Assembly: GCA_963662465.1 (NCBI GenBank)
Contig: OY759599.1
Location: 3,776,001 to 3,840,000 of the forward strand
Direction of reading: 5' to 3'
Length of the DNA: 64,000 bases
Source of the DNA: Desulfatiglandales bacterium
GTDB lineage: Bacteria > Desulfobacterota > DSM-4660 > Desulfatiglandales > Desulfatiglandaceae
Part shown: positions 2,750-26,548 of the stretch, piece after piece
How positions within the stretch are numbered: the stretch's first letter is position 1
Layout: every line of letters starts with the position of its first letter
Made by a program: the position numbers and the translations under genes
Notes under the pieces: generated by a model
What the model saw: only the letters and a program-made list of their open reading frames with translations
The model's database searches: none
What the model was told of the DNA's origin: nothing

Positions 2750-2802
2750 TATAACCGCCCAAAAACATTGATTTACGCGCCTAAATGTGTTAAGCGGCAA
2801 AC

Positions 2803-3097: not shown

Positions 3098-4024
3098 TCA
3101 AGAAAGTACCGAACCGAAAGAATCCTTGTTGAATCTTATTTCCAGCAGGTTGTTTCGAATCCGCAGTTCATAGCCTTCCGGGCTGACCCTCGCCCCCAGG
3201 GAAAGATCCACCCGTAATGAAGCACCGATTTTGTGGCATCTGACCGTGACATGGTCGCCGTGAAAATCAAGCTTCAAATCGTCCGGCAAAACCCCTTTGA
3301 TCTCCATGATGACCCGGATTTGTTCTCCTTCGTCAAAAATGTCCACCAGTCGATCCCCATTGGGCAGGAAACGCTCTTTTCTTCCAATGAGCCACCAGCT
3401 GAAGGTGATGATTTCTCCGGTTTCCGGATCGGGTTTTCTTTTTTCAAAGGAGAGGATAGGGCATCCCAGCTCTTTTTCGGCAATGGGATTGATGGTTTCG
3501 CGAATGACCAGCAGGACATGCATATGATTGGGGGCCTGGATTACCTCAGCCAGGCGGTTGATCGTGGAGTGCCCGTTTTCCCAGAGATGCCATAAAATAT
3601 CCCGACCGTCGGAATCCAATTGTCCTGAAATTTTTTGAATGGTTGCCAGATCCACCTTCAGGAAACGAAGCTGCAGTATTTTCTTTTTCCATATATGGAT
3701 CTTGTTGGTGACAAAAAGAACATTGCCGATTCTTGAACCCGTTTTACCCTGATAAGTGATTCGCAGGGTGGGCCTGGTTTTCAGAACGTAATAATGCTTT
3801 TCATCGTGCAGCTTTTGAATGTCTTCAAGGGAAACCTGAAATCGAATCTCGGGTCTCAAAAAAAAGATCAGCCGTTTGTTGGTCAGAAAACACTCCACGG
3901 GTCGCCAGCCGGCCCGATGGGTTTGCCGAAAGCCGCCCTGATCCGTGAGAATGACATCCTCCCCGGGCAGAAACTCAGGTTTTGATCTGGGCAGCGGCGG
4001 CATGCTTCGTTTGGCCTGTCTCAT
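3098..4024 (-). CDS. Multidomain protein: PH/GRAM-like N-domain, winged-helix-like middle, C-terminal Hsp20/GvpH-like domain
   Basis: GWRPVECFLTNKRLIFF (PH/GRAM-like); DILWHLWENGHSTINRLAEVI (HTH-like); VDIFDEGEQIRVIMEIKGV...RNNLLEIRF (alpha-crystallin-like). Confidence 0.65.
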   Translation of the reverse strand: MRQAKRSMPPLPRSKPEFLPGEDVILTDQGGFRQTHRAGWRPVECFLTNKRLIFFLRPEIRFQVSLEDIQKLHDEKHYYVLKTRPTLRITYQGKTGSRIGNVLFVTNKIHIWKKKILQLRFLKVDLATIQKISGQLDSDGRDILWHLWENGHSTINRLAEVIQAPNHMHVLLVIRETINPIAEKELGCPILSFEKRKPDPETGEIITFSWWLIGRKERFLPNGDRLVDIFDEGEQIRVIMEIKGVLPDDLKLDFHGDHVTVRCHKIGASLRVDLSLGARVSPEGYELRIRNNLLEIRFNKDSFGSVLS

Positions 4025-4051: not shown

Positions 4052-4077
4052 GGGCAACCACAGGGGGTTGCCCCTAC
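4052..4077 (-). repeat. GTAG-type REP-like palindrome overlapping the dnaK stop codon
   Basis: Minus strand GTAGGGGCAACCCCCTGTGGTTGCCC: GTAG tetranucleotide followed by a GGGCAACC/GGTTGCCC hairpin. Confidence 0.6.
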
Positions 4078-5786
4078 GCCTCTTTCAAAAGCTCCCGTAA
4101 CTGCCCGGTCAAGTCTTTTATGATGCCGGGGTCGCCTTCAAACAAGGCCTCTTTCAGATCAAAAACAACGTCTTCGATTTTATTTTCATAAGCCTTTGAC
4201 ATGCCCTTTTTTTCCGTCAGGGTGCATTCCGCCGCACGCATCATGCTGTCGGCCCGAATGTTGATCTCGGTTTCTTCCCGTCTTTTCATGTCCTCCAGAA
4301 CAGCGACTTCCGCTTCCCCAATAGCCCTGGCCACTTCTTCGTCGGACAACAGGTGTGAGGCGTCGATTTCGATGCCCGTTTGTTGTTCCGTATAGAGGTC
4401 CGTGGCGGACACGTGAACAATGCCGTTCACATCAATTTCAAAATTGACCTCTACCTTGCCTTTTCCCCTGGGAAGGGGCGGAAGTCCGGTCAATTTGAAC
4501 TGGCCGAGGCTGATGTTGTCTTCGGCCATTTCCCGTTCTCCCTGAAGCACGTGAAAATCCATTTCCACCTGGTTGTCCTCCGCGTTGGTGAAGATCTGTC
4601 CAGCGGAGGTGGGGATGGTGGCATTTCTTTCAATGATTCGGGCAAAAAGGCCCCCTTCCGTTTCAATTCCCAGGGAAAGAGGCGTGACGTCCACCAGAAC
4701 CACATCGTCAATTTCCCCCGTGAGAACGCCGGCCTGAATAGCGGCGCCGATTCCCACCACTTCATCGGGGTTGATGCGGATAAAGGGCTTTCGGTGAAAG
4801 GTCTTTTCCACCATACGTCGTATGGCGGGCATCCGTGTGGCGCCGCCCACCAGAACAACCCGATCGATTTGCTCGGGGGTCAACCGGGCATCTTTCAAGG
4901 CCTGCAGGGTTGGGGGCAGGAGTCCATCGCGCAAATCAGCGGTGATGGCTTCAAAGGTGTCCCGCTCCAGGGAGATGGTTTCCGTGTCTCCCGTATGATG
5001 GGCTATTTTCAGGAAATGCAGGGGGATATCGATGCGCGGTTTGAAAGAAAGGTCCCTCTTGGCTTTTTCCGCCACTTCCTTCAACTGTTCCATTTCCATT
5101 GCGTCGGAACGGATGCGGCGTCCGAATTGATGCAAAATCTGGTCGGATAGATGGGCGACCAGCCTTTCATCCCAGTCGTCCCCGCCTAGCCGGGTATTGC
5201 CGTTGACCGCTTTTACGTGAAAGATGCCGTCTCCCAGCTCCAGAATGGATACATCAAAGGTGCCGCCGCCCAGGTCCCATACCAGAATGGTTTGAATGTT
5301 TTCGCGGTCCAGACCGTAGGCCAAGGCGGCGGCCGTGGGTTCATTGATGATGCGCATCACATCGAGGCCAGCCAGGATTCCCGCCTCCCGGGTAGTTTGG
5401 CGTTGGGCGTCAGTGAAATAGGCGGGCACGGTAATGACTGCCTTTTTAACTGGCATTTTCAGGTAGGTTTCCGCATCGGTTTTTATTTTTCGCAGGATAA
5501 AAGCGGAAATTTCCTGGGGGGAATAGGCCTTGCCATTAAGGGAGACCCTGTGATCCATACCCATATATCGTTTAATAGAGCTGATGGTATTGGCTGGATT
5601 GGCCGCCGCCTGTCTTTTAGCCACTGAGCCCACCAGGCGATGTCCGAGGGCTGTTTCCGCCACAACGGAAGGCGTCAGATTTTCGCCTTCAGCGTTGGGA
5701 ATGACCCTGGCCCGTCCGTTTTCTATTACGGCAGCCACCGAATAGGTGGTGCCCAGGTCTATGCCGATTGCTTTATCCATGTCCAT
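4074..5786 (-). CDS. dnaK: Hsp70/DnaK chaperone (cluster-specific paralogue, short C-terminus)
   Basis: GIDLGTT, TVPAYF, INEPTAAALAYG, DLGGGTFDVS, LVGGATRMP, DVVLVDVTPLSLGIET linker, intact substrate-binding domain. Confidence 0.93.
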   Translation of the reverse strand: MDMDKAIGIDLGTTYSVAAVIENGRARVIPNAEGENLTPSVVAETALGHRLVGSVAKRQAAANPANTISSIKRYMGMDHRVSLNGKAYSPQEISAFILRKIKTDAETYLKMPVKKAVITVPAYFTDAQRQTTREAGILAGLDVMRIINEPTAAALAYGLDRENIQTILVWDLGGGTFDVSILELGDGIFHVKAVNGNTRLGGDDWDERLVAHLSDQILHQFGRRIRSDAMEMEQLKEVAEKAKRDLSFKPRIDIPLHFLKIAHHTGDTETISLERDTFEAITADLRDGLLPPTLQALKDARLTPEQIDRVVLVGGATRMPAIRRMVEKTFHRKPFIRINPDEVVGIGAAIQAGVLTGEIDDVVLVDVTPLSLGIETEGGLFARIIERNATIPTSAGQIFTNAEDNQVEMDFHVLQGEREMAEDNISLGQFKLTGLPPLPRGKGKVEVNFEIDVNGIVHVSATDLYTEQQTGIEIDASHLLSDEEVARAIGEAEVAVLEDMKRREETEINIRADSMMRAAECTLTEKKGMSKAYENKIEDVVFDLKEALFEGDPGIIKDLTGQLRELLKEA

Positions 5787-6399
5787 TGCTATCGCTTTCC
5801 TGAAACTGGTTGAGGGTCTGAAGGATTTTTTCTTCCGTGAAGGGTTTATCGATAAAGCTGTGAACCCCTTTTTCCTTGGCGTCCACCATCCGGTCCTCGC
5901 TGCCGTATGCGCTGATAATCACCACAAAGGTTTCAGAGCATTTTGCCTTGATGACGGGAAGCATGTTCATTCCGTCGCCATCGGGCAGTTTCAGGTCCAG
6001 CAAGATGAGATCGGGTTTTTTTCCCAGGGATCGAATGCCCTCACGAATGGTGTTGGCGGTGCATACATTGTAACCCTTTTCCTTCAAGGCGATCGACAGG
6101 AGCCAGCACAGATCTTCCTCATCGTCTACGATCAGAATATTTCTGATCTTTTTTTTGTGAATGAGGGGAGGGGCTTGTTCGGCCTGTTTTCTTCTCAGCC
6201 GTTCTTTTTCTCGCTTTTCAAAATATGGTTTTAATTCTTTCAATTCTTCGGGCTTGCGCCACCCGGAAAGGCCGCTTCGCCATACAAGGGCCTCGTCCCG
6301 CTTGATGATTCCCTTGAGTATCCAGCTCTTGAGCCTGGCATGATACACCGCGCTGTAGGTGTCCGCTCCTCGCCTCACATCGTATTTGAATTCTCGCAT
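5773..6399 (-). CDS. GYF_2/DUF4339-like domain fused to a response-regulator receiver domain
   Basis: LKSWILKGIIKRDEALVWRSGLSGWRKPEELKEL (GYF_2-like), then ILIVDDEE...LLDLKLPDGDG...ISAY...KPF. Confidence 0.8.
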   Translation of the reverse strand: MREFKYDVRRGADTYSAVYHARLKSWILKGIIKRDEALVWRSGLSGWRKPEELKELKPYFEKREKERLRRKQAEQAPPLIHKKKIRNILIVDDEEDLCWLLSIALKEKGYNVCTANTIREGIRSLGKKPDLILLDLKLPDGDGMNMLPVIKAKCSETFVVIISAYGSEDRMVDAKEKGVHSFIDKPFTEEKILQTLNQFQESDSNGHG

Positions 6400-6408
6400 A
6401 AGCCTTCT

Positions 6409-7131
6409 CTAATGCATGGGTAGCGAAATGGTAAAAAGTGCCCCTTTTCCCCGTTGACTTTCGACGCTGATGGTACCGCCATGACTGACCACGGTCCCAT
6501 AGGTCACGGACAATCCAAGACCGATTCCGGAAGCCTTGGTGCTGAAAAACGGGTCGAATATGCGAATAATATCCTCTTCCGGGATGCCGAGCCCCGTATC
6601 CTTGATTTTGATCACGAAATAGCGTCCTTCAATCCCGGTCTCAAGGGTCATGACGCCCCCGTCGGGCATGGCGTCCAAGGCGTTGATCATGACGTTTGAA
6701 AAGACCCGGGTAATCTGTTCCCGGTCCACGTTGATGACCGGGAACCCCGGGCAATAGGCTTTGCGGATGCCGACCTGTTGGGCGGTAATCTTGGCTTTGA
6801 TGGAATCCAGCGTGTTTTCCAGGATGCCGTTGATGTCATGGGGTTGAATATTGAGCTTGGGGGGCCTTGCACAGTTTAACAATTCGGTAATCAAAAAATT
6901 GATCCGTTCCGTATTCCGAACCAGGATTTCGATATGTTTGGCCCAGGGACTATCCTTAGGAAAGGCTTCCCTCAGTTGTCTGACCGACATGGACACATTG
7001 GTCAGGGGATTTCGGATTTCATGGGCGATGCTGGCGGCGATTCGCCCTGTAAAGGCAAGCCTCTCTGAGAGAACGAACTCTTCCTTTCTGGTTTTTCGTT
7101 CTTCGCTGTCGGTTGTAACGGGTGCGTCCAT
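6409..7131 (-). CDS. Cytoplasmic histidine kinase without sensor domain (HisKA-HATPase)
   Basis: AHEIRNPL H-box, NVMINALDAM N-box, DTGLGI, FDPFFSTK, GIGLGL. Start at MDAPV with GAGGG upstream (ORF track start 7218). Confidence 0.9.
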   Translation of the reverse strand: MDAPVTTDSEERKTRKEEFVLSERLAFTGRIAASIAHEIRNPLTNVSMSVRQLREAFPKDSPWAKHIEILVRNTERINFLITELLNCARPPKLNIQPHDINGILENTLDSIKAKITAQQVGIRKAYCPGFPVINVDREQITRVFSNVMINALDAMPDGGVMTLETGIEGRYFVIKIKDTGLGIPEEDIIRIFDPFFSTKASGIGLGLSVTYGTVVSHGGTISVESQRGKGALFTISLPMH

Positions 7132-7157
7132 TTTTTCCCTCATATGAAAGTGGCGGG

Positions 7158-7880
7158 TTAGACCGATGCCCTGATCTCCGGAATTTTTCCAGCTGAAACA
7201 GGACTGCGCCAGCCACATTCGGCGCAGCCGTTTTCAAGCAGTATTTGAACCAAATCAAGCTTCCCGCATTGGGGGCAGGTCTCTCTTTCTTTTTCCGAAA
7301 GGTCCTGAACATCGAAACCTGAATCGAGAATGGCGGCTTCCAGGTTTTTGCGCAATTGCCGAATATGCAGCGATGTCAATCGGCGCCACCGGTTCCCTTT
7401 CAACAGAAGATGCAGTTCCCGTCGCGGTTTTTTCCCGGGAGATGCTTCTTCCTCACTGTGCGCCAGGCCCCGTATTTCGGCAAGGGGCGTTTCGAACAGG
7501 ATCTTTTGGAAATCTTCATGATAAAGGATCAAACGCCCGGGCGTCAGGTAAAAGCGGCCGTACTGCCAGGTATTGAACAACCCGTCGGTCGAGTGGCAGG
7601 CGCCCGGTACTTTGAGGAGTACTTTTTCCCCGGCGATCAAATCATCCTGCTTCTCCTGTCTGTTTTTCCGTTCCCACTCCCTGGTTTTCTCGTCCCACGC
7701 CTGCATGACCCCGTATTTCAGCATGGTTTCCATGCCTGCCAACGCCGCCCGGAGATTGACGCCAATGAGCGGAATGCCCGCAACAGATACGATGAGGTCC
7801 GCATGAATGACCAGGCCCTTGTCCAGAACGCGATCCAGGAGGTCGACTAACGTTGCGTGGGTATTTCGTTTGGGGATCAT
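7158..7880 (-). CDS. gvpM: GvpM-like (GvpA/J family) protein fused to a PH/GRAM-like domain and a C-terminal Zn ribbon
   Basis: LVDLLDRVLDKGLVIHADLIVSVAGIPLIGVNLRAALAGMETMLKYG resembles haloarchaeal GvpM (ADIPLIGISLRAAIAGM); then WQYGRFYLTPGRLIL and CPQC...GCAECGW. Confidence 0.8.
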   Translation of the reverse strand: MIPKRNTHATLVDLLDRVLDKGLVIHADLIVSVAGIPLIGVNLRAALAGMETMLKYGVMQAWDEKTREWERKNRQEKQDDLIAGEKVLLKVPGACHSTDGLFNTWQYGRFYLTPGRLILYHEDFQKILFETPLAEIRGLAHSEEEASPGKKPRRELHLLLKGNRWRRLTSLHIRQLRKNLEAAILDSGFDVQDLSEKERETCPQCGKLDLVQILLENGCAECGWRSPVSAGKIPEIRASV

Positions 7881-7882
7881 AA

Positions 7883-7959
7883 TATCAGTTTTCAGTGGTC
7901 AGTTGTCAGTTATCAGAAGTTTCTATTCAGTGATCCCTGTCCCCTGATCCCTGCCCCCT
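7883..7959. repeat. Degenerate heptamer tandem repeats (TCAGTT-type and GATCCCT-type)
   Basis: atcagtt ttcagtg gtcagtt gtcagtt atcag and gatccct gtcccct gatccct gccccct in the gvpL-gvpM spacer. Confidence 0.7.
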
Positions 7960-7960
7960 T

Positions 7961-8965
7961 TTAAACAAAACTGTACGGTGGCCATGGGCCGGTGTAACGA
8001 ACGGAAAAGCCTTCCCGCCCGTCAATTTTTTCCAGCGCTTCGCCCAGTTTTTCACTTTGATCTTTTGGGAGCAGGCAGGACAGGTTCAAGAGCATCTGCC
8101 GCTCTTCATCATCGGTTTTTTTGGTCTTTTCAACCCGAATATCATCGGTATAATTTCTGATCTCTTCATAAAATTCCTGAAAGCATTGATCCGCCTTGTT
8201 TGCCATCTCATTTTTCAGCAGTTCTTCCAGTTTTTGGCGATACATATAGGCGATTCCTTTGGGTTTTGTTTTGATCTCCTCCCGCAATTGGTTTATTGGG
8301 GCGCTCTCATCGCTGATTTGTTGGGCCATGGTCTTCGTTTCCCAGAAGATTTGTACGCCGTATTCGGCTTTATTCCTGATTTTGGTCATTTTCAAGGTCA
8401 AATTGTCGTAATCGCCTTCAATCCATTGTTGCATATTCTTTTTCGGGTCTTGATCCCCTTTGCCGCAAATGATGGTGTCAAAGCCCATGGGAATGATGGT
8501 CCCGAATTTTTCCCCAGCCGCATCCACCACCTTCTGATGGGTTAGCACCCAGACTTTGACAATGTCTTGGTCGTCAGACTGATAGGGTTCGGCGGTGCAG
8601 TTATGGACGATTGCGGAGAGGTTGCCGAAGGGAATGGTGTAAACTTCATTTGCTTCAAGTCCCATATTGCCGAGGGTTATTTCGTGGTCGCCGTCGGCAA
8701 TGCCGTAAAGATAAAGGCCGATTGCGGATTGCGGATTGCGGATTGCGGATTGCGGGTCTCTCAACTCAGGCTTCCGGGTTTCCTCCTTTTCATCTTCAGG
8801 ATTCCATTCCGGTAGTTCACCCAGGGTATGGGTGATTTCCGCTCGAATGGCCGCTCTGAGTTGCGGCAGAAGGGATGTTGCCACAATCTCTTTTATGGTT
8901 TCCCTGTTTTCCGAAAGGATGGCGTTGATTTCCTCTCGTACCATTTTTTCGATGATTGCTTTCAA
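7961..8965 (-). CDS. gvpL: GvpL/GvpF-family protein with N-terminal extension
   Basis: GLYLYGI, HQKVVD, IPMGFDTI, EYGVQIF and C-terminal YTGPWPPYSFV. Confidence 0.88.
   Translation of the reverse strand: MKAIIEKMVREEINAILSENRETIKEIVATSLLPQLRAAIRAEITHTLGELPEWNPEDEKEETRKPELRDPQSAIRNPQSAIGLYLYGIADGDHEITLGNMGLEANEVYTIPFGNLSAIVHNCTAEPYQSDDQDIVKVWVLTHQKVVDAAGEKFGTIIPMGFDTIICGKGDQDPKKNMQQWIEGDYDNLTLKMTKIRNKAEYGVQIFWETKTMAQQISDESAPINQLREEIKTKPKGIAYMYRQKLEELLKNEMANKADQCFQEFYEEIRNYTDDIRVEKTKKTDDEERQMLLNLSCLLPKDQSEKLGEALEKIDGREGFSVRYTGPWPPYSFV
8721..8755 (+). repeat. (ATTGCGG)5 heptamer array inside the gvpL coding sequence
   Basis: Five perfect units, translated on the minus strand as PQSAIRNPQSAI. 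Confidence 0.95.
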
Positions 8966-8983
8966 TTGACGGCTTTTCGCTCC

Positions 8984-9295
8984 CTAATGATCTCTATCTT
9001 CCCACCTTTCCGGGTTGATGATTTGATCCAGTATATCGTCCACAATGCTGTCCAAACCGTCCCGGACCGACTTAACCGATTCCGTGATGCCCTGTTCGAT
9101 CTTCATTTCTTCGATGGCCGTGTCCAGGTCCATCAGGGCTTCACCCAGTCGATTGGTTTCCTCTTCCGTCAGGGTTCCCCCTTCCATGCGTTTCAGGGCC
9201 TGCAGCCTGAGCGCGTCCTTGATGATTTCCACCAGGGCCACCACCAGGCCCAGCACCCCGTGCTTGAGGTTTTTTTCGTCAATGTCGATGGACAT
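8984..9295 (-). CDS. gvpK: Gas vesicle protein K
   Basis: LGLVVALVEIIKDALRLQALKRMEGGTLTEEETNRLGEAL is a typical GvpK pattern. Confidence 0.92.
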   Translation of the reverse strand: MSIDIDEKNLKHGVLGLVVALVEIIKDALRLQALKRMEGGTLTEEETNRLGEALMDLDTAIEEMKIEQGITESVKSVRDGLDSIVDDILDQIINPERWEDRDH

Positions 9296-9298
9296 TTT

Positions 9299-9330
9299 AG
9301 TGAAAAGTGAAAAGTGAAGAGTGAAGAGTG
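9299..9330 (+). repeat. (AGTGAAR)4 heptamer array
   Basis: agtgaaa agtgaaa agtgaag agtgaag agtg directly upstream of gvpK. Confidence 0.85.
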
Positions 9331-9354
9331 GGTGGAACTGCCGGCCACTGCTTA

Positions 9355-9729
9355 CTAGTCACTGATCACTTCCTTTGCCTTGGCACTGATCCAGCCGCAC
9401 CAGGGACAGCCGGTGGTGATAAGATCCTCCAGTACAACCCTTTTTTCGCATTGGGGACAGTGCTCCTTGGCGATGACCGCGTCTTCCCAGGCGGGGGTTT
9501 TCAGACTGGTCCCCGAGGGAAATTCCAAACCGTATTTGGCGGCGGTTTCAAAGGACGCCAGCGCCGCCCTGATTTTGATGCCCAGCAGTTCAACGCCCAC
9601 CACCGATACGGTGATGTCCGCATTGATGACCAGGCCTTTGTCTAAAATTCTGTCGATGACGTCCGCCAGGCCGCCGGCCCTTTCGTCTCGGGAAGGTTCC
9701 ATGGCCATTGCGTTAGTTTCTCCCGCCAT
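9355..9729 (-). CDS. gvpJ: GvpJ with C-terminal Zn ribbon
   Basis: LADVIDRILDKGLVINADITVSVVGVELLGIKIRAALASFETAAKYGLEFPSGT (haloarchaeal GvpJ-like), then CPQC...GCPWCGW. Start may be at 9702. Confidence 0.9.
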   Translation of the reverse strand: MAGETNAMAMEPSRDERAGGLADVIDRILDKGLVINADITVSVVGVELLGIKIRAALASFETAAKYGLEFPSGTSLKTPAWEDAVIAKEHCPQCEKRVVLEDLITTGCPWCGWISAKAKEVISD

Positions 9730-10489
9730 TGCTTCCGGCGATGTGATTTTCTCTCACATGAACAACGCCCTTGCCGCTGCATTTGAGACAGGTCAGGCCG
9801 GTTCCCTGCTCGGTTCCCGATCCTTTACAGTCGCTGCACGGCGCAATAGGGGGGTGAACCGAAACAACGCCTTTGCCGCGGCATACGGGGCAAGTTCGTC
9901 CTGATTTTCGTTCCATGCCCCGGCCTTTGCAAAAAGCGCATGAAACGGCCGGAGGAGCGATGCCGACACTACCGCTTCCCCGGCAGATGGGACATTTGGC
10001 CCCCTTCTCTTTTTTCCCGGTTCCCCCGCAAAATCCGCATGCGTGGGTGTTTTCGGTCATCAGGCGTGTTCCGCCGTTTCCACCGGCCCTTCCCGACATG
10101 GTTCCATTCCCGTAGGTCATGGTGTTCCAACCCACCTCATCCTGGCCCGGTTTAAAAAAACTGTTTGGGGACTGGTTGGGGTTTGCCTTGAAGGTTCTGA
10201 AAGACCGCCATTGGAATTCTTCTCTCTGGAGACTTTTAAAGGGGACCCTCTGTTCCGTTTCGATGGTTCTTTCTTCATGGGACCAACCCAGCGCTTTTTT
10301 CCCCTTTGACGTGATTTTAAAGCGACCCCGGTCTTCCTGATCAAGATGTTTGCTTTTGATGAGGTTCGTACATAGAACCGTTGCGTAGTAAGCGTCAATC
10401 CCCAATTGTCGGCTCACCAGGCGAGTGGTTGTTTTGCCGTGTTCCCTGCTTACGGTCTTCAATGCCTTCATTTCGCTCCCTGAAACCAT
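9713..10489 (-). CDS. Winged-helix-like domain plus DnaJ-type Cys-rich Zn-finger protein
   Basis: N-terminal wHTH-like (VSRQLGIDAYY...GRFKITSKGKKAL); six CxxCxGxG repeats; no J-domain HPD motif. Confidence 0.75.
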   Translation of the reverse strand: MVSGSEMKALKTVSREHGKTTTRLVSRQLGIDAYYATVLCTNLIKSKHLDQEDRGRFKITSKGKKALGWSHEERTIETEQRVPFKSLQREEFQWRSFRTFKANPNQSPNSFFKPGQDEVGWNTMTYGNGTMSGRAGGNGGTRLMTENTHACGFCGGTGKKEKGAKCPICRGSGSVGIAPPAVSCAFCKGRGMERKSGRTCPVCRGKGVVSVHPPIAPCSDCKGSGTEQGTGLTCLKCSGKGVVHVRENHIAGSNGGRN

Positions 10490-10501
10490 CAGAAATGTCT
10501 C

Positions 10502-10768
10502 CTACTCCGACGCCGATTCGGTATCAATACGCCTTCTCATGCCGGTGCGCCGAAAATCCAGCATATTGCCTTCCCCATCCAGCCGGGTTTCGTAGGCGGC
10601 CAGGATATCCATACTTTCGGGGATAGAATGTTTTTCCACCACTTCAAGGACGACCCGCCATTCATCTTCTTCTCTGGCGACTTCGATGGTGGATGAGACC
10701 TCCAAACCCGTTAGGGCATTCAATTCGGACCTTGCATTCTTGACGATTTGTGCCATGCCGACAGCCAT
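10502..10768 (-). CDS. gvpO: Gas vesicle protein O (GvpO/GvpR family)
   Basis: WRVVLEVVEKHSIPESMDILAAYETRLDGEGNMLDFRR. Confidence 0.9.
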   Translation of the reverse strand: MAVGMAQIVKNARSELNALTGLEVSSTIEVAREEDEWRVVLEVVEKHSIPESMDILAAYETRLDGEGNMLDFRRTGMRRRIDTESASE

Positions 10769-10841
10769 TTTTTTCTCCTTTAACGCTAGATTCCAAAAAG
10801 CTCAATTATTCAATTTTAATGACAAAAATGAAATCTACATG

Positions 10842-10874
10842 AATCCGCAATCCGAAATCCGCAATCCGAAATCC
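10842..10874 (+). repeat. (AATCCGM)n heptamer array, reverse complement of the array inside gvpL
   Basis: aatccgc aatccga aatccgc aatccga aatcc. Confidence 0.85.
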
Positions 10875-11114
10875 CTATCCCTCTTCCTTCATCTTCCGGA
10901 TCATCTCAAGTTGTTCCATAAGGCGTGTTTCCTGTTTCTCATATTCTTCTTCGCTGATTTCATCCATTTCAAACTGCATCTGGAGATGAAGCAGCCCTTC
11001 GTGGATTTTTGATTCATCCGTCATTTCGTTGTAAGCCGCGTCCCGCAATTTTTGACCCAGCCAGATGGTCAGCTTAAGGGGTGAAAAAAGAATGTCATCC
11101 AGAATAAAAGCCAT
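10875..11114 (-). CDS. gvpG: Gas vesicle protein G
   Basis: MAFILDDILFSPL...LQMQFEMDEISEEEYEKQETRL. Confidence 0.92.
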   Translation of the reverse strand: MAFILDDILFSPLKLTIWLGQKLRDAAYNEMTDESKIHEGLLHLQMQFEMDEISEEEYEKQETRLMEQLEMIRKMKEEG

Positions 11115-11130
11115 AACCTAGCATCCTCCC

Positions 11131-11154
11131 CCTGCACCCTGCACCCTGCACCCT
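11131..11154 (+). repeat. (CCTGCAC)3 heptamer array
   Basis: cctgcac x3 plus cct between gvpF and gvpG. Confidence 0.8.
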
Positions 11155-11159
11155 ATTTT

Positions 11160-11912
11160 CTACCATTTCACCACGATTTCCACGAAATTGCAGGGCGGAA
11201 TAGGCCCCACATACTTCAGCGTCATTTTTCCCGCATAAAGGTCCTTGACTTTTTCAACCGCAAGATCGAACGCTTTTTCCTTTTCTTTTTCTATCAGAAA
11301 TGCCGTGTTGGTAATCATTTGATCTCCGAAATGATTATTCAGTTTTCTTTCCACCCAGAGCCCTTCAAGGGGGACCAGGATGGATTGTTCTTTCTGTTCT
11401 TTCCAGGCCTCAAGGGCCTTTTTGACCATCTCTCCCAGGCGGACCTGATCCCGCTGAACGCCGCCCCGGCGCTTAATCAGTCGGTCGCGCAGTCGACTGA
11501 TATCCGTGTTCTGGGTGGCAATTTCATCGAAGACGGGCTTCATGTCTTTCCAGATGGCCTTGATGCCCAATTCAATCTTGCCGTGCATATAGGCTAACGC
11601 TTCAACCAGTTCCCCTCGCCTGTCTTTCAGGAGTTTTTCCCGGATCGGAAGCAATCCCTCGCTGACCGTTCCGAATCGTACCGGGAGCATGGGATATTCC
11701 AGCATCACCCTTTCCATGACTTTCTGATGGGCCATGGTATTGGCCCGGGTAACCGGGTATTGCTTGATGGGAGAATCGCTGACCACCGCCCCGAGCCCGT
11801 CCTGAACAATGGTATAGATTTCGCTGTTGTGTTTGCCGACGCCGGCGTCGCCGAAATGTGCTTCCCGATCCGTTTCAATGATGGCGTAGATGTATTGTCC
11901 TACCTCGGTCAT
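11160..11912 (-). CDS. gvpF: GvpF/GvpL-family protein
   Basis: GQYIYAII, AHQKVME, LPVRFGT, ELGIKAIW, YVGPIPPCNFV. Confidence 0.9.
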   Translation of the reverse strand: MTEVGQYIYAIIETDREAHFGDAGVGKHNSEIYTIVQDGLGAVVSDSPIKQYPVTRANTMAHQKVMERVMLEYPMLPVRFGTVSEGLLPIREKLLKDRRGELVEALAYMHGKIELGIKAIWKDMKPVFDEIATQNTDISRLRDRLIKRRGGVQRDQVRLGEMVKKALEAWKEQKEQSILVPLEGLWVERKLNNHFGDQMITNTAFLIEKEKEKAFDLAVEKVKDLYAGKMTLKYVGPIPPCNFVEIVVKW

Positions 11913-11931
11913 ATCAGTGGTTCCCTTCCCC

Positions 11932-12951
11932 CTAATTGCCCACGGTCGTTATGGAGACCCAGCTTTTGATATCCGTTTCCCGAAAGGAACAAATCGGGTC
12001 TCGGCAGTAATCATTTACCAACTTGTAGGCATGGCTGATTTTTTCGAAATGCTTCTGGGCGTCCCGGTCGCCCGGGAATTTGTCCGGATGGAATTTTTTG
12101 GTCAGTTGCCGGTAATTATCCCGGATCTCCTGTTGGGTGGTTTCTTCTTCCAGTTGAAGCAGCTTCCTGGCATCGTTCAATGGCGCATATTCGGCGGTTT
12201 TGATCTCAAAGGTATGAAAACTGTAAGGGGGCAAAGGGCCGATGATGCGAAAATTGATCCGGTCTTCATAACGCTGGTCCAGTCCCGAGACGATGCCTTC
12301 CAGCCGGGGTGCATTTTCCTTTCTAATCAGGAAAGCGGCGTTCATGATCATGCCATCGTCCATGAGGGAATGAATGCAGTGCTTTTCCGCGATGCTCAGC
12401 AGGGGGGGCAAAATGACGGATTTCAGGGATTCCCGTTTTTGGTCCAGCAGGGCCTTTACCTGTTTTCCGGCTTGGATCCTTAGTTCCAAACCATTGCCGT
12501 CCGATTCGGCAGCTGCGGTTTCCTTGAGCGCCTTGATCTCCTCGGTCTGTCCAATTTCCGCCAGTACGGCATTCAAGTCCGGCCAGAGCGCCACCACGTC
12601 AAGCTCGATCTTGTTTTCCATTTCGTTCAGACTTTTAACAATTTCATCCTCTCCCCGTTTCAAAATCCGGATGACCGCCTCATCCCCTTCAAGCAGTGCC
12701 CCGAATTTGACGGGGATCACCGGATGCGCGTTCATCACCTGCTCAATGACCGATTGGTAAACCGTCAGATTTCGCAGGAGGGTTTCCTTGGGCAGCGCCT
12801 CAAACCCCTGGCGGGGCAGGTTACTGACGATGGCGGATATGCCCTCAATCGGCACGGTGTAAACTTCCCTGCCGTCAATTCCGATGGCGCCGAACCCGCG
12901 GGGTTCATTCCCTTCGATGAGTCCGTAAATGGTTCTCCCTTCATCCGGCAT
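11932..12951 (-). CDS. GvpF/GvpL-family protein fused to a C-terminal DnaJ J-domain
   Basis: GvpF/L core ending GPLPPYSF, then ARKLLQL...EIRDNYRQLTKKFHPDKFPGD...FEKISHAYKLV (J-domain with HPD). Confidence 0.9.
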   Translation of the reverse strand: MPDEGRTIYGLIEGNEPRGFGAIGIDGREVYTVPIEGISAIVSNLPRQGFEALPKETLLRNLTVYQSVIEQVMNAHPVIPVKFGALLEGDEAVIRILKRGEDEIVKSLNEMENKIELDVVALWPDLNAVLAEIGQTEEIKALKETAAAESDGNGLELRIQAGKQVKALLDQKRESLKSVILPPLLSIAEKHCIHSLMDDGMIMNAAFLIRKENAPRLEGIVSGLDQRYEDRINFRIIGPLPPYSFHTFEIKTAEYAPLNDARKLLQLEEETTQQEIRDNYRQLTKKFHPDKFPGDRDAQKHFEKISHAYKLVNDYCRDPICSFRETDIKSWVSITTVGN

Positions 12952-12985
12952 TCCGGTTCCTCCATTCTGGTTCTTTTGGGGTGAA

Positions 12986-15118
12986 TCAGGGCTTGTTTAT
13001 CTCTTCAAGAGCATTCTGAAAATGTTTTCCCCGTATTTTGAATTCGGCATAGTCGCTTTCTCCGCTTTCGATGAATTCCCGAATGGCCTTCATGGCCGCC
13101 TTTTTGCAGATGGATTCCAGGTCGGCCCCCACCAGATTTTCGGAAGCCTCAGCAAGGACTTCAAGGTCCACGTCTTCGGCCAGAGGTTTTTGCCGGGTAT
13201 GCACTTTCAGGATCTCCAGCCTGGCCTTTTTGTCCGGAAGCGGGATTTCAAAATGAAAATCGAACCTTCCCGCCCTGAGCAGGGCCTCGTCAATGATATC
13301 CGGACGGTTGGTGGCGGCCAGAACCATGATCCCTTTCAGTTCCTCGATGCCGTCCATTTCCGTTAAAAACTGGCTGATAACCCGATCCGCCACATGGGAA
13401 GATCCATCCATCCCCCGCCTGGGGGCCACACTGTCGATCTCATCGAAAAAGATGATGCAGGGGGAGGCCTGTTTGGCCTTTTTGAAAATTTCCCGGATCC
13501 CTTTTTCGCTCTCCCCCACCCATTTGCTCATGAGTTCAGGCCCTTTGACGGAGATGAAATTGACTTCCGATTCCGATGCCACCGCCTTGGCCAACAGGGT
13601 CTTTCCGGAACCGGGGGGACCGTATAGCAGGATGCCTTTGGACGGCGTGGTTCCGGCGTGTTCGAATAAATCGTTGTATTTCAGGGGCCATTCAATGGTT
13701 TCCTTGAGAACCCGCTTGACCTCTTCCAGGCCGCCCACGTCGCTCCACTTCACGTCGGGAACCTCGGTAAAAACCTCCCGAATGGCGGAGGGTTCCACCT
13801 CCCTGAGGGCTTCCCTGAAGTCGTCCATGGACACCTGGAGCTTCATCAGGGTTTCGTAGGGAATTTCTTCCAGCTCAAAATCGATTCTGGGAAAGATTTT
13901 TCGAAGGGTTGCCATGGCCGCTTCCCTGGAGAGCGCCTCCAGATCCGCCCCCACAAATCCGTGAGTAATTTCAGCGAGTCGGTTCAGATCAACGTCCTCT
14001 GAAAGGGGCATGCCCCGGGTGTGCACATTCAGAATGGCCAAACGTCCGTTCATGTCCGGAATGCCGATTTCGATTTCCCGATCGAAACGGCCCGGTCTTC
14101 TGAGTGCCGGATCAAGGACATTGGGAATATTGGTGGCGCCGATAACAATGACCTGGCCCCGGGACGCAAGACCGTCCATCAGAGCAAGCAGTTGGGCTAC
14201 CACCCGCTTTTCCACCTGTTTCTCTCCGCCCATCTCCTCCCTTTTGGGAGCAATGGCGTCAATTTCGTCCAGGAAAATGATACTGGGGGCTTTGGCCGTG
14301 GCCTCGTCAAATATTTTACGCAGGTTGGCCTCGCTCTGGCCATAGAATTTGTGCATGATCTCCGGGCCGCTGATGGTCCGGAAAAAGGCGTCGGTCTCGT
14401 TGGCCACGGCGCGGGCAATGAGGGTTTTTCCACAGCCCGGAGGCCCGTGGAGGAGTACCCCCCTTGGGGGATCAATGCCCAGCCGTTCAAAGATCTGGGG
14501 ATATTTTAGCGGGAGTTCGATCATCTCCCGGATTTTTCGAATTTCCCGCCCCAGGCCCCCGATGTCTTCATAGGAAATGCGGGTTTTTCCTTCGCCCGGT
14601 TCCTTTTGCTGCTGAACTTCCATTGCCGTCTGGGGATGAATCATGACCACCCCCGATGGGCTTGTGGCAACCACTTTGAAATCCTGGGTTCGGGAACCAA
14701 TGAGCCTGGCCCGTACCAGATCCCCTTCCACCAGGGGAAGCCCTTCCAGAAGGCTTCCGATATAGCGGGCATCGTAGGATCGCATGACGGTGAGGGGCGC
14801 CACCACAATTTTCCGGGCCGGCTGAAAGTCGCAGGCGGCGATTTTCACTTTTTCATCGATGCCCACTTGCGCATTTTCCCGGGTAATGCCGTCCAGCCGG
14901 ATCAACCCTTGTCCACGGTCCTCCATGTAAGCGGGAAGCACCTTGGCAACGGTTTTTCGTTTGCCTTCCACCGTCACCACATCACCCACCTGAACGCTCA
15001 GTTTTTCAAACTCCCCCGGGTCAAACCGGACAATGCCGCGACCCACGTCCTTGGTGACCGCTTCCGCCACCTTGAGGGTCAGGGGTTTTGCCGTTGTTGT
15101 TTTCTTTTCAGAAGTCAT
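12986..15118 (-). CDS. cdc48: CDC48/VCP/VAT-family double AAA+ ATPase (archaeal type)
   Basis: N-domain (LKVAEA...DVGRGIVR); D1 SYEDIGGL...GPPGCGKT...[18 protein letters not shown]2 VKWSDVGGL...GPPGSGKT...KWVGESEK. Confidence 0.93.
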
Positions 15119-15145
15119 GGGTAATCCTTGTTGGTTATTAGAAGG

Positions 15146-15898
15146 TTACAGCTTCATCTCAATGCTCACGAAATTGAAGGGGGGCGCCGGTCCCACAAGC
15201 TTGAAATCCGCTTCGTTGCTGTATTCATCCGCCAGGTCTTCCACCAGGAAATCAACCTGTTTTTCTCTGGTTCTGTCGATGAGGAATACGGCGTTTAAGA
15301 ACATGTCGTCTCCCATCACGTCGTTTTGGTGCGTATCCAGGGTCAGCCTCTTGAATTGGCGCAGGATTTTCTCGGCGAGTTGCTTCTTTTTTTCATCCAA
15401 AGCCGCCTTCACTGCTTTTCCCAGATCGACTTTTTCATTGCCGTCGGCTTCTTTGCCGTGTTCCGCAACCTTCTTTTTGAGTTCTTTCACGTCGGGGTCG
15501 GTTTGGGCGATTTCCTCAAAGATCTTTTCCATGTGGGTCCAGCGGGCTTTGAGTCCCATTTCCACTTTGTTGTCGAGATCATGAAGCAGCCCTTTGAATT
15601 CAGCATGTTGTCGTCTGAGAAATGTGCGAACCTCCTCGGCGCTGTTGGCGATGGTGCAGAATCTCACCGGCAAAACCGTGTAGTCCTTCATAACTTCTTC
15701 GATGACCTTTTCATGGGCCATGAGATTTTCGGGGTCAATTACGTACCGGGTGATCGGCGAGCTGCTGATGACCGCGCTGATGTCGTTGAACCCGATGGTG
15801 GATACAATGTCGCCCCGTTTGCCGATTCCCATGGGACCGAAGTTTCTGCCTTCATCGCCGTTGATGATGCAGTATATGTATTTACCTTCTTTGGCCAT
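15146..15898 (-). CDS. gvpF: GvpF/GvpL-family protein
   Basis: GKYIYCII, AHEKVIEEVM, VLPVRF, VGPAPPFNFV. Confidence 0.9.
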   Translation of the reverse strand: MAKEGKYIYCIINGDEGRNFGPMGIGKRGDIVSTIGFNDISAVISSSPITRYVIDPENLMAHEKVIEEVMKDYTVLPVRFCTIANSAEEVRTFLRRQHAEFKGLLHDLDNKVEMGLKARWTHMEKIFEEIAQTDPDVKELKKKVAEHGKEADGNEKVDLGKAVKAALDEKKKQLAEKILRQFKRLTLDTHQNDVMGDDMFLNAVFLIDRTREKQVDFLVEDLADEYSNEADFKLVGPAPPFNFVSIEMKL

Positions 15899-15917
15899 AA
15901 TCTCTCCACAGTCGCTG

Positions 15918-16232
15918 TCAATAATCCATCGTCATGACCTTCATGTTGCCCTTGGGCCTGATTTTCCGGGCATCGTTGCCTTCCAGCAGTTTTGCCTTTT
16001 TTTCCAATTCCTGGGCATCCAGCTCCGCGATCCTGTTTTCGATATCTTCAATCCGGGTTTCAATCACTTTTTTTCGCTGGCTGACGCTTACCAGTTCTTT
16101 CCTGGAAAGGGAGAGGTTATTTTTCAAAAGGTAGATCTCGGCGTCATTTGCCCGATCCGCCTTGGGGAGGGAACGGTGTTTCATTCCCATAAGCGTTTTG
16201 ATGTGACCCAGCGAACGAATCTCTTTTCCCAT
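15918..16232 (-). CDS. gvpV: Coiled-coil protein, GvpV-like
   Basis: Directly after gvpN, as in the Serratia 39006 cluster; RSLGHIKT N-motif, central coiled coil, C-terminal Tyr. Similarity judged from memory. Confidence 0.6.
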   Translation of the reverse strand: MGKEIRSLGHIKTLMGMKHRSLPKADRANDAEIYLLKNNLSLSRKELVSVSQRKKVIETRIEDIENRIAELDAQELEKKAKLLEGNDARKIRPKGNMKVMTMDY

Positions 16233-16252
16233 GAAATCTCTCCTTATGATCG

Positions 16253-17167
16253 CTAACAGATTTGATCGATTAATTCGTTGATGACCCTTTTAACCCTTTT
16301 CTGGCTTCCGGCGGTGCCGATGCGGCTGGTTTCGGATGATAGGATATCCATACAGGTCTGCCTGAAAATCGGGTCATTCTTGTCTACCGCCGCCTCGCGG
16401 ACCACCAGGGTTTTGGCGATCATGATACATCCCCGGATGGTTGGGGCGAACTCATAGACGTCGGATTCGCGCAATCCTCTCACGATGCGGACAATTTTCG
16501 TCGCATCCCCATCCAGCAGACCGGATTTGAACTCGGTGATGCGAATTTCCGTCTCTTCATCGAAATAGTCCACATCCAGGGTGATCATTCGGTCGCGAAG
16601 GGCGTCCTGACTTCGGTGAACCCCCGCATATTCTTCCGGATTGCTGGTGAAAATGGCTGTAAAATCAGGGTGGACCTTGAGATAATTCCCTTCTCCCTGT
16701 CTGGGGGCCGGCAGATCCAGCATCCTTTCCTGAAGCACCGACAGCAGAATGTTGTTGGCCTCGGGTCTGGTTCGGGTGAACTCATCATAAATGAGGGTAA
16801 ACCCGTTTTTACAGGCCACGGTGAGACGGTTGTCGGCCCATCTTTTCTGCATGTCCTCTTCAGTTTTCTTGACCGTGTGAATATAATTGTCCACCACTTT
16901 GCGTCTGTGAAAACCGGTCTCTCCGCCCACAAGGTCCGATGTAGAAAACTCCTCGTCCCCATGAATCATGACTACGGGTCGCCCGATCATGGCCGCCACA
17001 TGCATGGCCAGGGTGGTTTTGCCGGTTCCCGAGATGCCTCGAAAATGGATGGGAAAGCCCGCAGCGATATAGGCCATGGCTCTTTCCGCCATGTCCTGGA
17101 CATAGGGGGTTTCTACGAAGTTCGGCAGAGAGCGAGGCTCCAGAACCGTTGTACTGTTAGTTGACAT
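16253..17167 (-). CDS. gvpN: Gas vesicle AAA+ ATPase GvpN
   Basis: GISGTGKTTLA, VVDNYIHTVKK, YDEFTRTRPEANN, FTSNPEEYAGVH, QDALRDR. Confidence 0.96.
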   Translation of the reverse strand: MSTNSTTVLEPRSLPNFVETPYVQDMAERAMAYIAAGFPIHFRGISGTGKTTLAMHVAAMIGRPVVMIHGDEEFSTSDLVGGETGFHRRKVVDNYIHTVKKTEEDMQKRWADNRLTVACKNGFTLIYDEFTRTRPEANNILLSVLQERMLDLPAPRQGEGNYLKVHPDFTAIFTSNPEEYAGVHRSQDALRDRMITLDVDYFDEETEIRITEFKSGLLDGDATKIVRIVRGLRESDVYEFAPTIRGCIMIAKTLVVREAAVDKNDPIFRQTCMDILSSETSRIGTAGSQKRVKRVINELIDQIC

Positions 17168-17201
17168 AAAATTCTCCTTATGAACTGGATAGCGGCAGGT
17201 T

Positions 17202-17244
17202 GAAGGCGGAGCGCCGTTATGGATGCCGATCGCGCTCCGCCTTC
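17202..17244. other. Intergenic stem-loop upstream of gvpN
   Basis: 13-bp perfect stem GAAGGCGGAGCGC/GCGCTCCGCCTTC with a 17-nt loop; no clear U-tract. Confidence 0.7.
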
Positions 17245-17254
17245 TGCGTACTGC

Positions 17255-17623
17255 CTACTTTTTAGTAACCACGCCTTTGCCGCCACAGGTCAAACAGGGG
17301 AGGTATTGCCCCGGCTGTAAGCCTTTCCCTGCGCAATCAGGACATGTTTTCAGGGGTTTCACGGCTGAAACCACCCCTTTTCCGGCACAGACCGTACAAA
17401 CCATTCTTCGCTGGGGTTGGACCGCTGTGCCGTTGCAATAGGCGCACGGTCTAACCGCTCCGTATATGCTGATCCGTCCTTTTCCGCCACAAACCTGACA
17501 ACGGGAAGCGCCGTAGAGCAGTCCAAACGGGTCAATGCCGGTTCCCCGACAAAACGTACACGCCAGGGTGTTCTTTTCCTCAGTGGTCATGCTTGCTGAG
17601 TCGGTCATTGCACTTCCTTCCAT
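17255..17623 (-). CDS. Stand-alone DnaJ-type Cys-rich Zn-finger protein
   Basis: Six CxxCxGxG-like repeats (CTFCRGTG, CQVCGGKG, CAYCNGT, CTVCAGKG, CPDCAGKG, CLTCGGKG). Confidence 0.82.
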   Translation of the reverse strand: MEGSAMTDSASMTTEEKNTLACTFCRGTGIDPFGLLYGASRCQVCGGKGRISIYGAVRPCAYCNGTAVQPQRRMVCTVCAGKGVVSAVKPLKTCPDCAGKGLQPGQYLPCLTCGGKGVVTKK

Positions 17624-20369: not shown

Positions 20370-20573
20370 TTACGCGGTCGCGGTAAGCCCCACGGCCTCG
20401 GCATATTTGAGGTATGTCTCAACGCCGGCAACCACGGCCCTTGCTTCGATGGCCAGCAGTTCAATTCCCACGAGAGAAACCCTTGCCCATGCGTCGACGA
20501 CCACGCCCTTATCCAAAATTCTGTCGACTACTTCAGCCAAACTTGCGGATGCCATTGATTTTTCCATTGCCAT
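20370..20573 (-). CDS. gvpA: Major gas vesicle structural protein GvpA (copy 2)
   Basis: [64 protein letters not shown]. Confidence 0.98.
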
Positions 20574-20641: not shown

Positions 20642-20845
20642 CTATGCGGTCGCGGTAAGTCCCACGGCCTCGGCATATTTGAGGTATGTCTCAACGCCGG
20701 CAACCACGGCCCTTGCTTCGATGGCCAGCAGTTCAATTCCCACGAGAGAAACCCTTGCCCATGCGTCGACGACCACGCCCTTATCTAAAATTCTGTCGAC
20801 CACTTCAGCCAAACTTGCGGATGCCATTGATTTTTCCATTGCCAT
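20642..20845 (-). CDS. gvpA: Major gas vesicle structural protein GvpA (copy 1)
   Basis: Same protein as copy 2; first gene after the sigma54 promoter. Confidence 0.98.
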
Positions 20846-23871: not shown

Positions 23872-23893
23872 GAATTATTCATTCTCTTTCTCT

Positions 23894-25723: not shown

Positions 25724-25752
25724 AGCTCACTCTTCACTTTTCACTAAAAAAA

Positions 25753-26493: not shown

Positions 26494-26548
26494 GATTGCA
26501 TCCTTTCTCTTTGCTGAGGTCCTTAAACCCATAAATTCGTCTCAACGT

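Follow-up and report, generated by a model that had tools for sequence, protein, structure and literature searches.

The window analysed here is a 64,000-nucleotide stretch (positions 3,776,001 to 3,840,000 of contig OY759599.1) of the 8.16 Mb single-contig genome of a Desulfatiglandales bacterium (GCA_963662465.1), and it contains a gas vesicle gene (gvp) cluster that runs on the minus strand from 20845 to 770. This cluster encodes a GvpF paralogue fused to a J-domain (GvpF-J) and a DnaK paralogue (gvp-DnaK), which together form a real, conserved and apparently undescribed module. We consider it likely that the two proteins are a cognate pair.

A GvpF paralogue carrying a J-domain

The 339-residue product of 11932..12951 matches two Pfam families, GvpL_GvpF over residues 8-245 (E 6.7e-53) and DnaJ over residues 263-314 (E 1.6e-13; 51 bits against a cut-off of 27.8), giving a layout of a GvpF/L domain (about residues 1-250), a J-domain (about 255-315) and a short tail. 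The HPD (His-Pro-Asp) motif occupies residues 288-290, between helices II and III. An AlphaFold (AF2) model built on a 70-row alignment reached a predicted local distance difference test score of 91.8 and a predicted template modelling score of 0.81. Foldseek matched its J part to J-domains including chain B of the DnaK-bound structure 5NRO (root-mean-square deviation 1.2 over 55 columns). The preliminary description of this DNA had made the J-domain the C-terminus of a GvpF/L paralogue; Pfam and the model bear out the fusion and its HPD, and place the J-domain near the C-terminus rather than at it, with about 24 residues, predicted to form two short strands, beyond it.

Both Pfam domains were found in 93 of 94 GvpF-J homologues, the remaining one being a partial sequence, and the HPD is invariant in the 70 aligned homologues (70/70); the domain pair is therefore not a product of chance. 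The HPD fusion is present in all 80 loci of a genome scan, which are the best 80 of 505 confirmed GvpF-family matches. The titles of these loci name Desulfobacterota, Nitrospirota, Chloroflexota, Actinomycetota, Bacillota, Planctomycetota, Verrucomicrobiota, several candidate phyla and one Methanoperedens, the closest named relatives being titled Desulfatiglandales and Desulfobacteraceae. When compared by blastp with the DnaJ of its own genome, GvpF-J matches at a meaningful E-value only over residues 260-314. As judged by its domain content, GvpF-J is a class C J-domain protein.

GvpF-J resembles the GvpF/GvpL family (PF06386) in its profile match and in a fold shared over about 248 columns with the GvpF crystals 6L5D (Foldseek E 3.9e-16) and 4QSG, and differs from that family in carrying a J-domain. 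It scores below the NCBIfam cut-offs for cyanobacterial GvpF and for halophile GvpL, and is one of four GvpF/L copies in the cluster. With class A DnaJ it shares the J-domain and its HPD, and the cluster also holds CxxCxGxG repeats; unlike class A DnaJ, it has no glycine/phenylalanine region, beta-sandwich or dimerisation domain, and the repeats lie on separate, independently distributed genes. A divergent GvpF-J (L158:4140-5081, genome G174; 24% identity, HPD intact) lies amid two-component genes on a different contig from gvpN, in a genome without gvp-DnaK, and is possibly an early branch or a separate fusion.

A separate clade of gas vesicle Hsp70s

The preliminary description had also placed a DnaK in the same gene run, and it is there, at 4074..5786, on the same strand and within an unbroken run of genes from gvpA to an ArsA-type ATPase gene. 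The genome further encodes two ordinary DnaKs, one of them behind grpE, and more distant Hsp70s; the cluster copy is 48-50% identical to the ordinary ones. In phylogenetic trees the gvp-DnaKs of different phyla cluster together, apart from the DnaK of their own hosts. A quick IQ-TREE analysis yielded a branch parting 29 gvp-DnaK from 18 housekeeping rows with a Shimodaira-Hasegawa-like approximate likelihood ratio test support of 96. In FastTree, from which rows shorter than 520 residues and one long-branch Hsp70 were excluded, 36 of the 98 full-length rows came together as one group with support of 100; two signature residues served to define this group, and the six new signature-bearing loci in this set have gvp or Hsp20 neighbours. 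The row nearest to the group is a Bacillota housekeeping copy of the grpE-dnaK-dnaJ type (at 90). Since the outgroups, drawn around genome G059, were mostly insert-bearing DnaKs, few monoderm or archaeal outgroups were included (L071_hk, L194, L196, L209 and two unclassified). The diderm insertion is missing from most gvp-DnaKs. Among solved structures, the closest to the cluster DnaK is 2V7Y, which we take to be a Geobacillus DnaK. One sub-clade (L082, L098, L103, L210) carries a different insert where the diderm insertion would sit, apparently a duplicated segment. The copy at L215 (G475), between gvpM and an Hsp20 gene, is split into two frames by a frameshift, pseudogene formation or an assembly error.

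Residues were compared between 29 cluster and 18 ordinary DnaK rows, using E. coli site numbers from passages of Mayer 2021 that were mapped by motif. Catalytic and J-contact residues are invariant (D8, K70, R167, E171, D193, T198, Q373 and P414 in housekeeping numbering), as are the equivalents of the HPD partners in gvp-DnaKs (R167, L391, Q378, P419). The substrate-binding region is remodelled: the V436-equivalent at the pocket floor is M in 23/29 gvp-DnaKs and V in 18/18 housekeeping rows, the M404-equivalent of the arch is E or Q in 27/29 against L in 17/18, and the lid residue equivalent to N537 is I in 28/29. In the cluster DnaK itself, E377, A402, M409 and F411 line the arch and pocket where 2V7Y has M, A, V and I. 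The T221-equivalent is V in all 29 gvp-DnaKs, D is kept at the D477-equivalent in just five of them, the interdomain linker is of the VLV type in place of LLL, the GrpE-signature loop is divergent without being deleted, and the acidic or charged C-terminal tail is missing. The cluster DnaK scores 686.7 with the housekeeping model TIGR02350, below its cut-off of 822.55, and 702.3 with NF001413, over its cut-off of 648. It does not show the housekeeping set of marks (M/L404, V436, D477, LLL linker, charged tail, grpE/dnaJ operon); its housekeeping-type ATPase and allostery residues are intact. The cluster DnaK falls into a distinct clade of gas vesicle Hsp70s in which the catalytic residues are intact and the substrate pocket is altered.

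The nearest parallel is HscB/HscA-IscU of the isc operon, where a class C J-protein with a client domain acts with an Hsp70 paralogue whose gene lies in the operon of the client. According to passages of Mayer 2021 (PMC8215388), HscA serves a single client with the class C J-protein HscB and is marked by V436M, loss of the N537-M404 bond, a short tail and loss of the GrpE signature. The gvp-DnaKs share M at V436 (in the 23 rows above), the absent N537-M404 contact, the short tail and an altered GrpE signature. They differ from HscA in that the cluster DnaK reaches only 555 bits with TIGR01991 (cut-off 708.55) and stands in a gvp and not an isc context, that their arch residue is E or Q and not M, that they are nearest to monoderm DnaK and not orthologous to HscA, and that their client would be an organelle shell protein. 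The K55 and E267 equivalents are kept in gvp-DnaKs, and that of R56 is variable. By this analogy gvp-DnaK is HscA-like in design, and is not HscA.

Co-occurrence of the fusion and gvp-DnaK

An unbiased sample was drawn from the phylum, consisting of 400 genomes at least 90% complete, 31 of which have gvpN besides the genome of the window. The fusion occurs in 10 of these 31 (nine full-length matches and the divergent L158 copy on its separate contig), and gvp-DnaK in 6/10 fusion genomes against 0/21 fusion-negative ones, counts in which related genomes are not independent data points. For the 21, typing was by signature in seven Hsp70 copies taken from six genomes, and by length, insertion and position in the others; some of these genomes are fragmented (G212 and G274 have no GvpF match at threshold, and the cluster of G095 ends at a contig end).

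In the 62 of the 80 fusion loci that were checked, gvp-DnaK lies within the locus in 28, lies elsewhere in the genome in 11 and was not found in 23, many of these 23 being small, probably incomplete genomes. Where at least 9 kb is available downstream, gvp-DnaK is present in the locus or genome in 31 of 37 cases. For five of the six other loci, a search of the whole Hsp70 family returned one ordinary DnaK each, plus a distant Hsp70 in two. Presence of gvp-DnaK requires four changes on the fusion tree. The dependence is one-way: gvp-DnaK is found solely with the fusion, the fusion occurs without gvp-DnaK, and the pairing is not obligatory. The predicted co-occurrence of fusion and paralogue therefore holds in one direction, being seen in the phylum sample and broken by the 23 of 62 checked loci with the fusion only. 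The preliminary description had reckoned a fusion commonly found without the paralogue, taken with an HPD mutant that has no phenotype, as evidence against its own reading; such fusions make up a sizeable minority.

The interface between J-domain and Hsp70

Position 27 of the J-domain, a basic DnaK contact, is K or R in 10/14 ordinary DnaJs and 10/13 fusions without the paralogue, as against 5/37 fusions with it, and the mean charge of helix II is 4.6, 3.2 and 1.8 in the same three groups. On the other side of the contact, 21 of 35 cluster DnaKs have H or Q in place of E217, the residue that faces J position 27. In a later, separate set, position 27 was non-basic in five of six fusions with the paralogue and basic in seven of 14 without it. 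The position-27 pattern fits an insulated pair, and we treat it as a lead suggested by the alignments. A charge swap between K48 and D477 was also considered as the means of insulation and rejected as a discriminator, the K48-equivalent being non-basic in fusions with and without the paralogue.

The zinc-finger proteins

Two other cluster proteins carry CxxCxGxG zinc-finger repeats, as had been described. The 122-residue protein (17255..17623) has five exact repeats and one CxxCxGxA, and the 258-residue protein (9713..10489) has six exact repeats after a weakly helix-turn-helix-like N-terminus; the two are 41-43% identical across the repeats. L064, L069, L096 and L102 have several small stand-alone genes, up to four in tandem, whose similarity to the 258-residue protein is confined to its N-terminal quarter. 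The preliminary description had proposed that the J-domain on GvpF and the zinc fingers on these other chains assemble into a class A-like co-chaperone, a split DnaJ, which we now hold to be highly improbable. In its favour, both proteins score over the Pfam DnaJ_CXXCXGXG cut-off and match the zinc finger of the genome's DnaJ (E 2e-8 and 3e-7), and zinc-finger genes are present in 18 of the 22 fusion loci whose flanks are both at least 9 kb. Their distribution argues otherwise. Relatives of the 122-residue protein occur in 17/31 gvpN genomes (two of the misses being fragmented assemblies), in 4/10 with the fusion, 13/21 without it and 2/6 with gvp-DnaK. Whole clusters with fusion and gvp-DnaK have no zinc finger (L151, L152, L054, L110), and others with a zinc finger have neither fusion nor gvp-DnaK (L166-L168, L170, L171). 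The gene is tied instead to gvpN: in 16 of the 17 genomes no more than about 550 nt separate the match from the gvpN downstream of it, and in 25 of 35 fusion loci the gene likewise precedes gvpN; a second gvpN copy is present in many clusters. Moreover, these proteins have six repeats as against four in DnaJ, and no cluster protein was matched by the DnaJ C-terminal part at E 1 or by Pfam as a DnaJ beta-sandwich.

Stand-alone proteins of the 122-residue type form a large group of their own. In the ESM Atlas the 122-residue protein returned only DnaJ-central and anti-TRAP clusters, with recognition below threshold. Like anti-TRAP RtpA, the zinc-finger proteins carry CxxCxGxG modules without a J-domain and match RtpA weakly; unlike RtpA, they have six repeats, score 36-37 bits against a cut-off of 65 and are gvpN-linked. 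Plant BSD2-like proteins are presumably a further stand-alone kind of DnaJ-type zinc finger. The two cluster proteins are probably separate accessory factors linked to gvpN and gvpO, and not pieces of a split DnaJ.

Proposed function and alternatives

Through its HPD, a J-domain makes Hsp70 hydrolyse ATP and trap the client, and class C J-proteins supply a client domain of their own (passages of PMC8215388). GvpF binds monomeric GvpA and has been proposed as its chaperone (passages of PMC11445434 and PMC9501494), in B. megaterium GvpG drives GvpF off the shell protein (PMC11445434, in part) and GvpL binds GvpJ and GvpM (PMC9501494, in part). From these interactions, published for other organisms, we infer that the client would be GvpA or its relatives GvpJ and GvpM. 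In the proposed mechanism, the GvpF part of GvpF-J would hold a GvpA-family subunit, the J-domain would trigger gvp-DnaK to take it over, and gvp-DnaK, by analogy with HscA a chaperone of narrow specificity, would release it for shell assembly. Fusions without gvp-DnaK would use the housekeeping DnaK, and Cdc48, Hsp20 and ArsA would deal with aggregates. Gene linkage and the changes on both sides of the docking surface suggest that the J-domain of GvpF-J prefers gvp-DnaK. The idea that GvpF serves here as a specialised J-protein recruiting the cluster DnaK thus keeps its core, a predicted genuine J-domain and a paralogue seen solely with the fusion, and gives up an obligatory pairing. The whole chain, in which a dedicated pair hands on GvpA-family subunits for shell assembly, client included, is what we favour on balance.

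Several observations weigh against it. The fusion lacks the paralogue in 4/10 genomes of the phylum sample and in the 23 loci counted above, among them clusters inside long contigs (L099, L105, L108), which suggests that some lineages can do without a private Hsp70. Because all genes of the cluster are passed on together, co-occurrence alone is no proof of a physical pair. No grpE was found in the cluster, and the cluster DnaK, unlike HscA, keeps A429 and both nucleotide-cleft salt bridges. At the interface, a phylogenetically independent test relating J positions 26, 27 and 29 and helix II charge to paralogue presence had few independent pairs to draw on, the position-27 trend coming down to one supported pair (four in all), at which significance is unreachable; nor does the K48-equivalent separate fusions with and without the paralogue. 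As for the client, the GvpA binder may be another GvpF/L copy, because the two J-less GvpFs score higher with the cyanobacterial GvpF model (99.5 and 97 bits against 69.2 for GvpF-J) and one of them adjoins gvpG. Apart from these points, a P-V/I-K/R motif of the IscU type was not found in GvpA, GvpJ, GvpM, GvpG or GvpK, its only matches lying in folded cores of GvpF copies, DnaK and ArsA. A complex prediction of the GvpF domain (residues 1-255) with GvpA scored 0.20 and 0.09 against a mark of 0.32, controls not having been folded, and is given no weight for or against the model.

A different task for the same cognate pair would be to act on assembly-factor complexes or finished vesicles, Hsp70 and Cdc48 dismantling GvpF-GvpG-type complexes, aggregates or collapsed shells. 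The position of cdc48 directly before GvpF-J and its presence in 20 of the 22 fusion loci with long flanks would fit such a role, as would a shallower pocket and polar arch, which suit a specific motif more than a leucine-rich hydrophobic strand, and the displacement of GvpF by GvpG in B. megaterium. Clusters that lack both the fusion and the DnaK can, however, contain Cdc48 as well (L027, L167), and we consider this role unlikely. Less probable still is that the J-domain mainly recruits the housekeeping DnaK and that the cluster DnaK is an optional copy, providing extra capacity or serving other partners such as the adjacent Hsp20. The loci with the fusion only speak for this, as do the distance of about 6 kb between the cluster DnaK and GvpF-J, the fact that its steadiest neighbours are gvpM and the Hsp20 gene, and the one gvp-DnaK broken into two frames (L215). 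Yet an Hsp70 depends on a J-protein and the cluster encodes none besides the fusion, the paralogue is absent from all 21 fusion-negative gas vesicle genomes, and the gvp-DnaKs make up a single old clade whose J-docking linker carries fixed changes.

Returning to the dedicated pair that hands on shell subunits, a wider view is possible, which we put forward tentatively: gvp-DnaK may be an undescribed specialised Hsp70 subfamily beside HscA and HscC that co-evolved an insulated interface to GvpF-J, forming with Cdc48, Hsp20 and the GET3-type ATPase an ATP-driven chaperone relay for feeding or recycling the shell protein, and that has dispersed as a unit among many anaerobic phyla.

Novelty and significance

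A full-text literature search, outside which most subscription papers lie, returned no description of the fusion or of a gas vesicle Hsp70. The GvpL_GvpF and DnaJ pair is visible in Pfam annotations, and Barriot et al. 2020 reportedly surveyed the domains fused to bacterial J-domains and may list it. One supplementary file of PMC10410713 contains no Gvp terms. Hsp20 and ArsA in gvp clusters were already known (passages of PMC2963123), and those passages, which deal with clusters of the Serratia, Pelodictyon and Geobacter type, contain no occurrence of DnaJ, DnaK or Hsp70. The present cluster resembles that type in its Hsp20 (GvpH) and duplicated ArsA; clusters of the type in our set (L166-L172) are without fusion and DnaK and often have a zinc-finger gene.

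The field has yet to explain how GvpA, a very hydrophobic protein, stays soluble and reaches the growing shell, GvpF being a proposed chaperone (PMC11445434, PMC9501494, both in part). A fusion with a matched Hsp70 would provide a clean handle, for one HPD mutation would stop the step and pocket swaps would define the client motif. If the reading is true, this would be a third operon-encoded specialised bacterial Hsp70 system, convergent with HscA. Gas vesicles used as ultrasound reporters in E. coli cause proteotoxic stress, and most mined clusters fail (passages of PMC12848028 and PMC10344784); the GvpF-J/gvp-DnaK module is a candidate fix for such expression.

Gene content of the cluster

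The genes below, all on the minus strand, are given in order of transcription. A 229-residue protein without assignment lies between gvpA and the 516-residue helical protein, and a 104-residue coiled coil between gvpN and the first gvpF. Intergenic gaps do not exceed 106 nt from gvpC to the Hsp20 gene. The labels GvpC-like, GvpV-like and GvpH-like are our assumption from position, with no family match behind them.

20642..20845 and 20370..20573, minus: gvpA, two identical copies, shell protein (Pfam/NCBIfam-type profiles)
17700..19250, minus: 516-residue helical repeat protein in the gvpC position (position only; no GvpC family match)
17255..17623, minus: 122-residue stand-alone zinc-finger protein, between the gvpC-like gene and gvpN (Pfam)
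16253..17167, minus: gvpN AAA+ ATPase (TIGR02640, 347.9 bits, over cut-off)
15146..15898, minus: GvpF paralogue without J-domain (profile matches)
12986..15118, minus: Cdc48/p97-type double AAA+ ATPase, directly before GvpF-J (TIGR01243, 970 bits against a cut-off of 802.65)
11932..12951, minus: GvpF-J, 339 residues (Pfam GvpL_GvpF and DnaJ)
11160..11912, minus: GvpF paralogue without J-domain, followed by gvpG and gvpO (profile matches)
10875..11114, minus: gvpG
10502..10768, minus: gvpO
9713..10489, minus: 258-residue zinc-finger protein with weak helix-turn-helix-like N-terminus, directly after gvpO (Pfam)
9355..9729, minus: gvpJ, with C-terminal CxxC..CxxC
8984..9295, minus: gvpK
7961..8965, minus: gvpL
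7158..7880, minus: gvpM, with long C-terminal extension and CxxC..CxxC
6409..7218, minus: histidine kinase core, inserted between gvpM and dnaK
5773..6399, minus: response regulator, inserted between gvpM and dnaK
4074..5786, minus: cluster DnaK (gvp-DnaK), 570 residues (Pfam Hsp70, E 3.9e-190)
3098..4024, minus: Hsp20-type C-terminal domain with a pleckstrin homology (PH)-like N-terminal part (GvpH-like), directly after dnaK
770..2800, minus: duplicated ArsA/GET3-type ATPase (TIGR00345)

The cdc48 gene is the sole full-length copy in the genome. The kinase and regulator pair (5773..7218) is not at the corresponding place in many relatives; the N-terminal segment of the regulator resembles GYF_2 (E 0.0015, below cut-off), and the adjoining kinase core is without a sensor domain. 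The GvpJ and GvpM paralogues have CxxC-x(13)-CxxC ribbons at their C-termini, and GvpM has an insert of about 130 residues with no family match, PH-like by eye. The protein at 3098..4024 consists of three parts (PH-like, helical middle, Hsp20-type end), matches NF041800 below cut-off (E 8.4e-9) and Vps36 weakly (E 0.057), and trails gvp-DnaK in most relatives. Each half of the ArsA/GET3 ATPase has a CxxC (286, 621), which we take to be the zinc-binding motif of GET3. Metatranscriptome contigs from two runs of one study that cover the region are mostly below 95% identity, that is, from relatives, and are possibly DNA-derived.

Directly upstream of gvpA, at 21070..26532 on the minus strand, lie a DUF2760 gene and a pair of genes for distant Hsp70-like proteins, one of which includes DUF3731. 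Distant Hsp70-like genes stand before gvpA in G010 and G003 as well, but not in G004, and are therefore probably a separate module. Further upstream of the cluster, a helix-turn-helix and Hsp20 fusion is encoded at 30533..31621 on the minus strand, and a similar gene lies upstream in G004 and G003.

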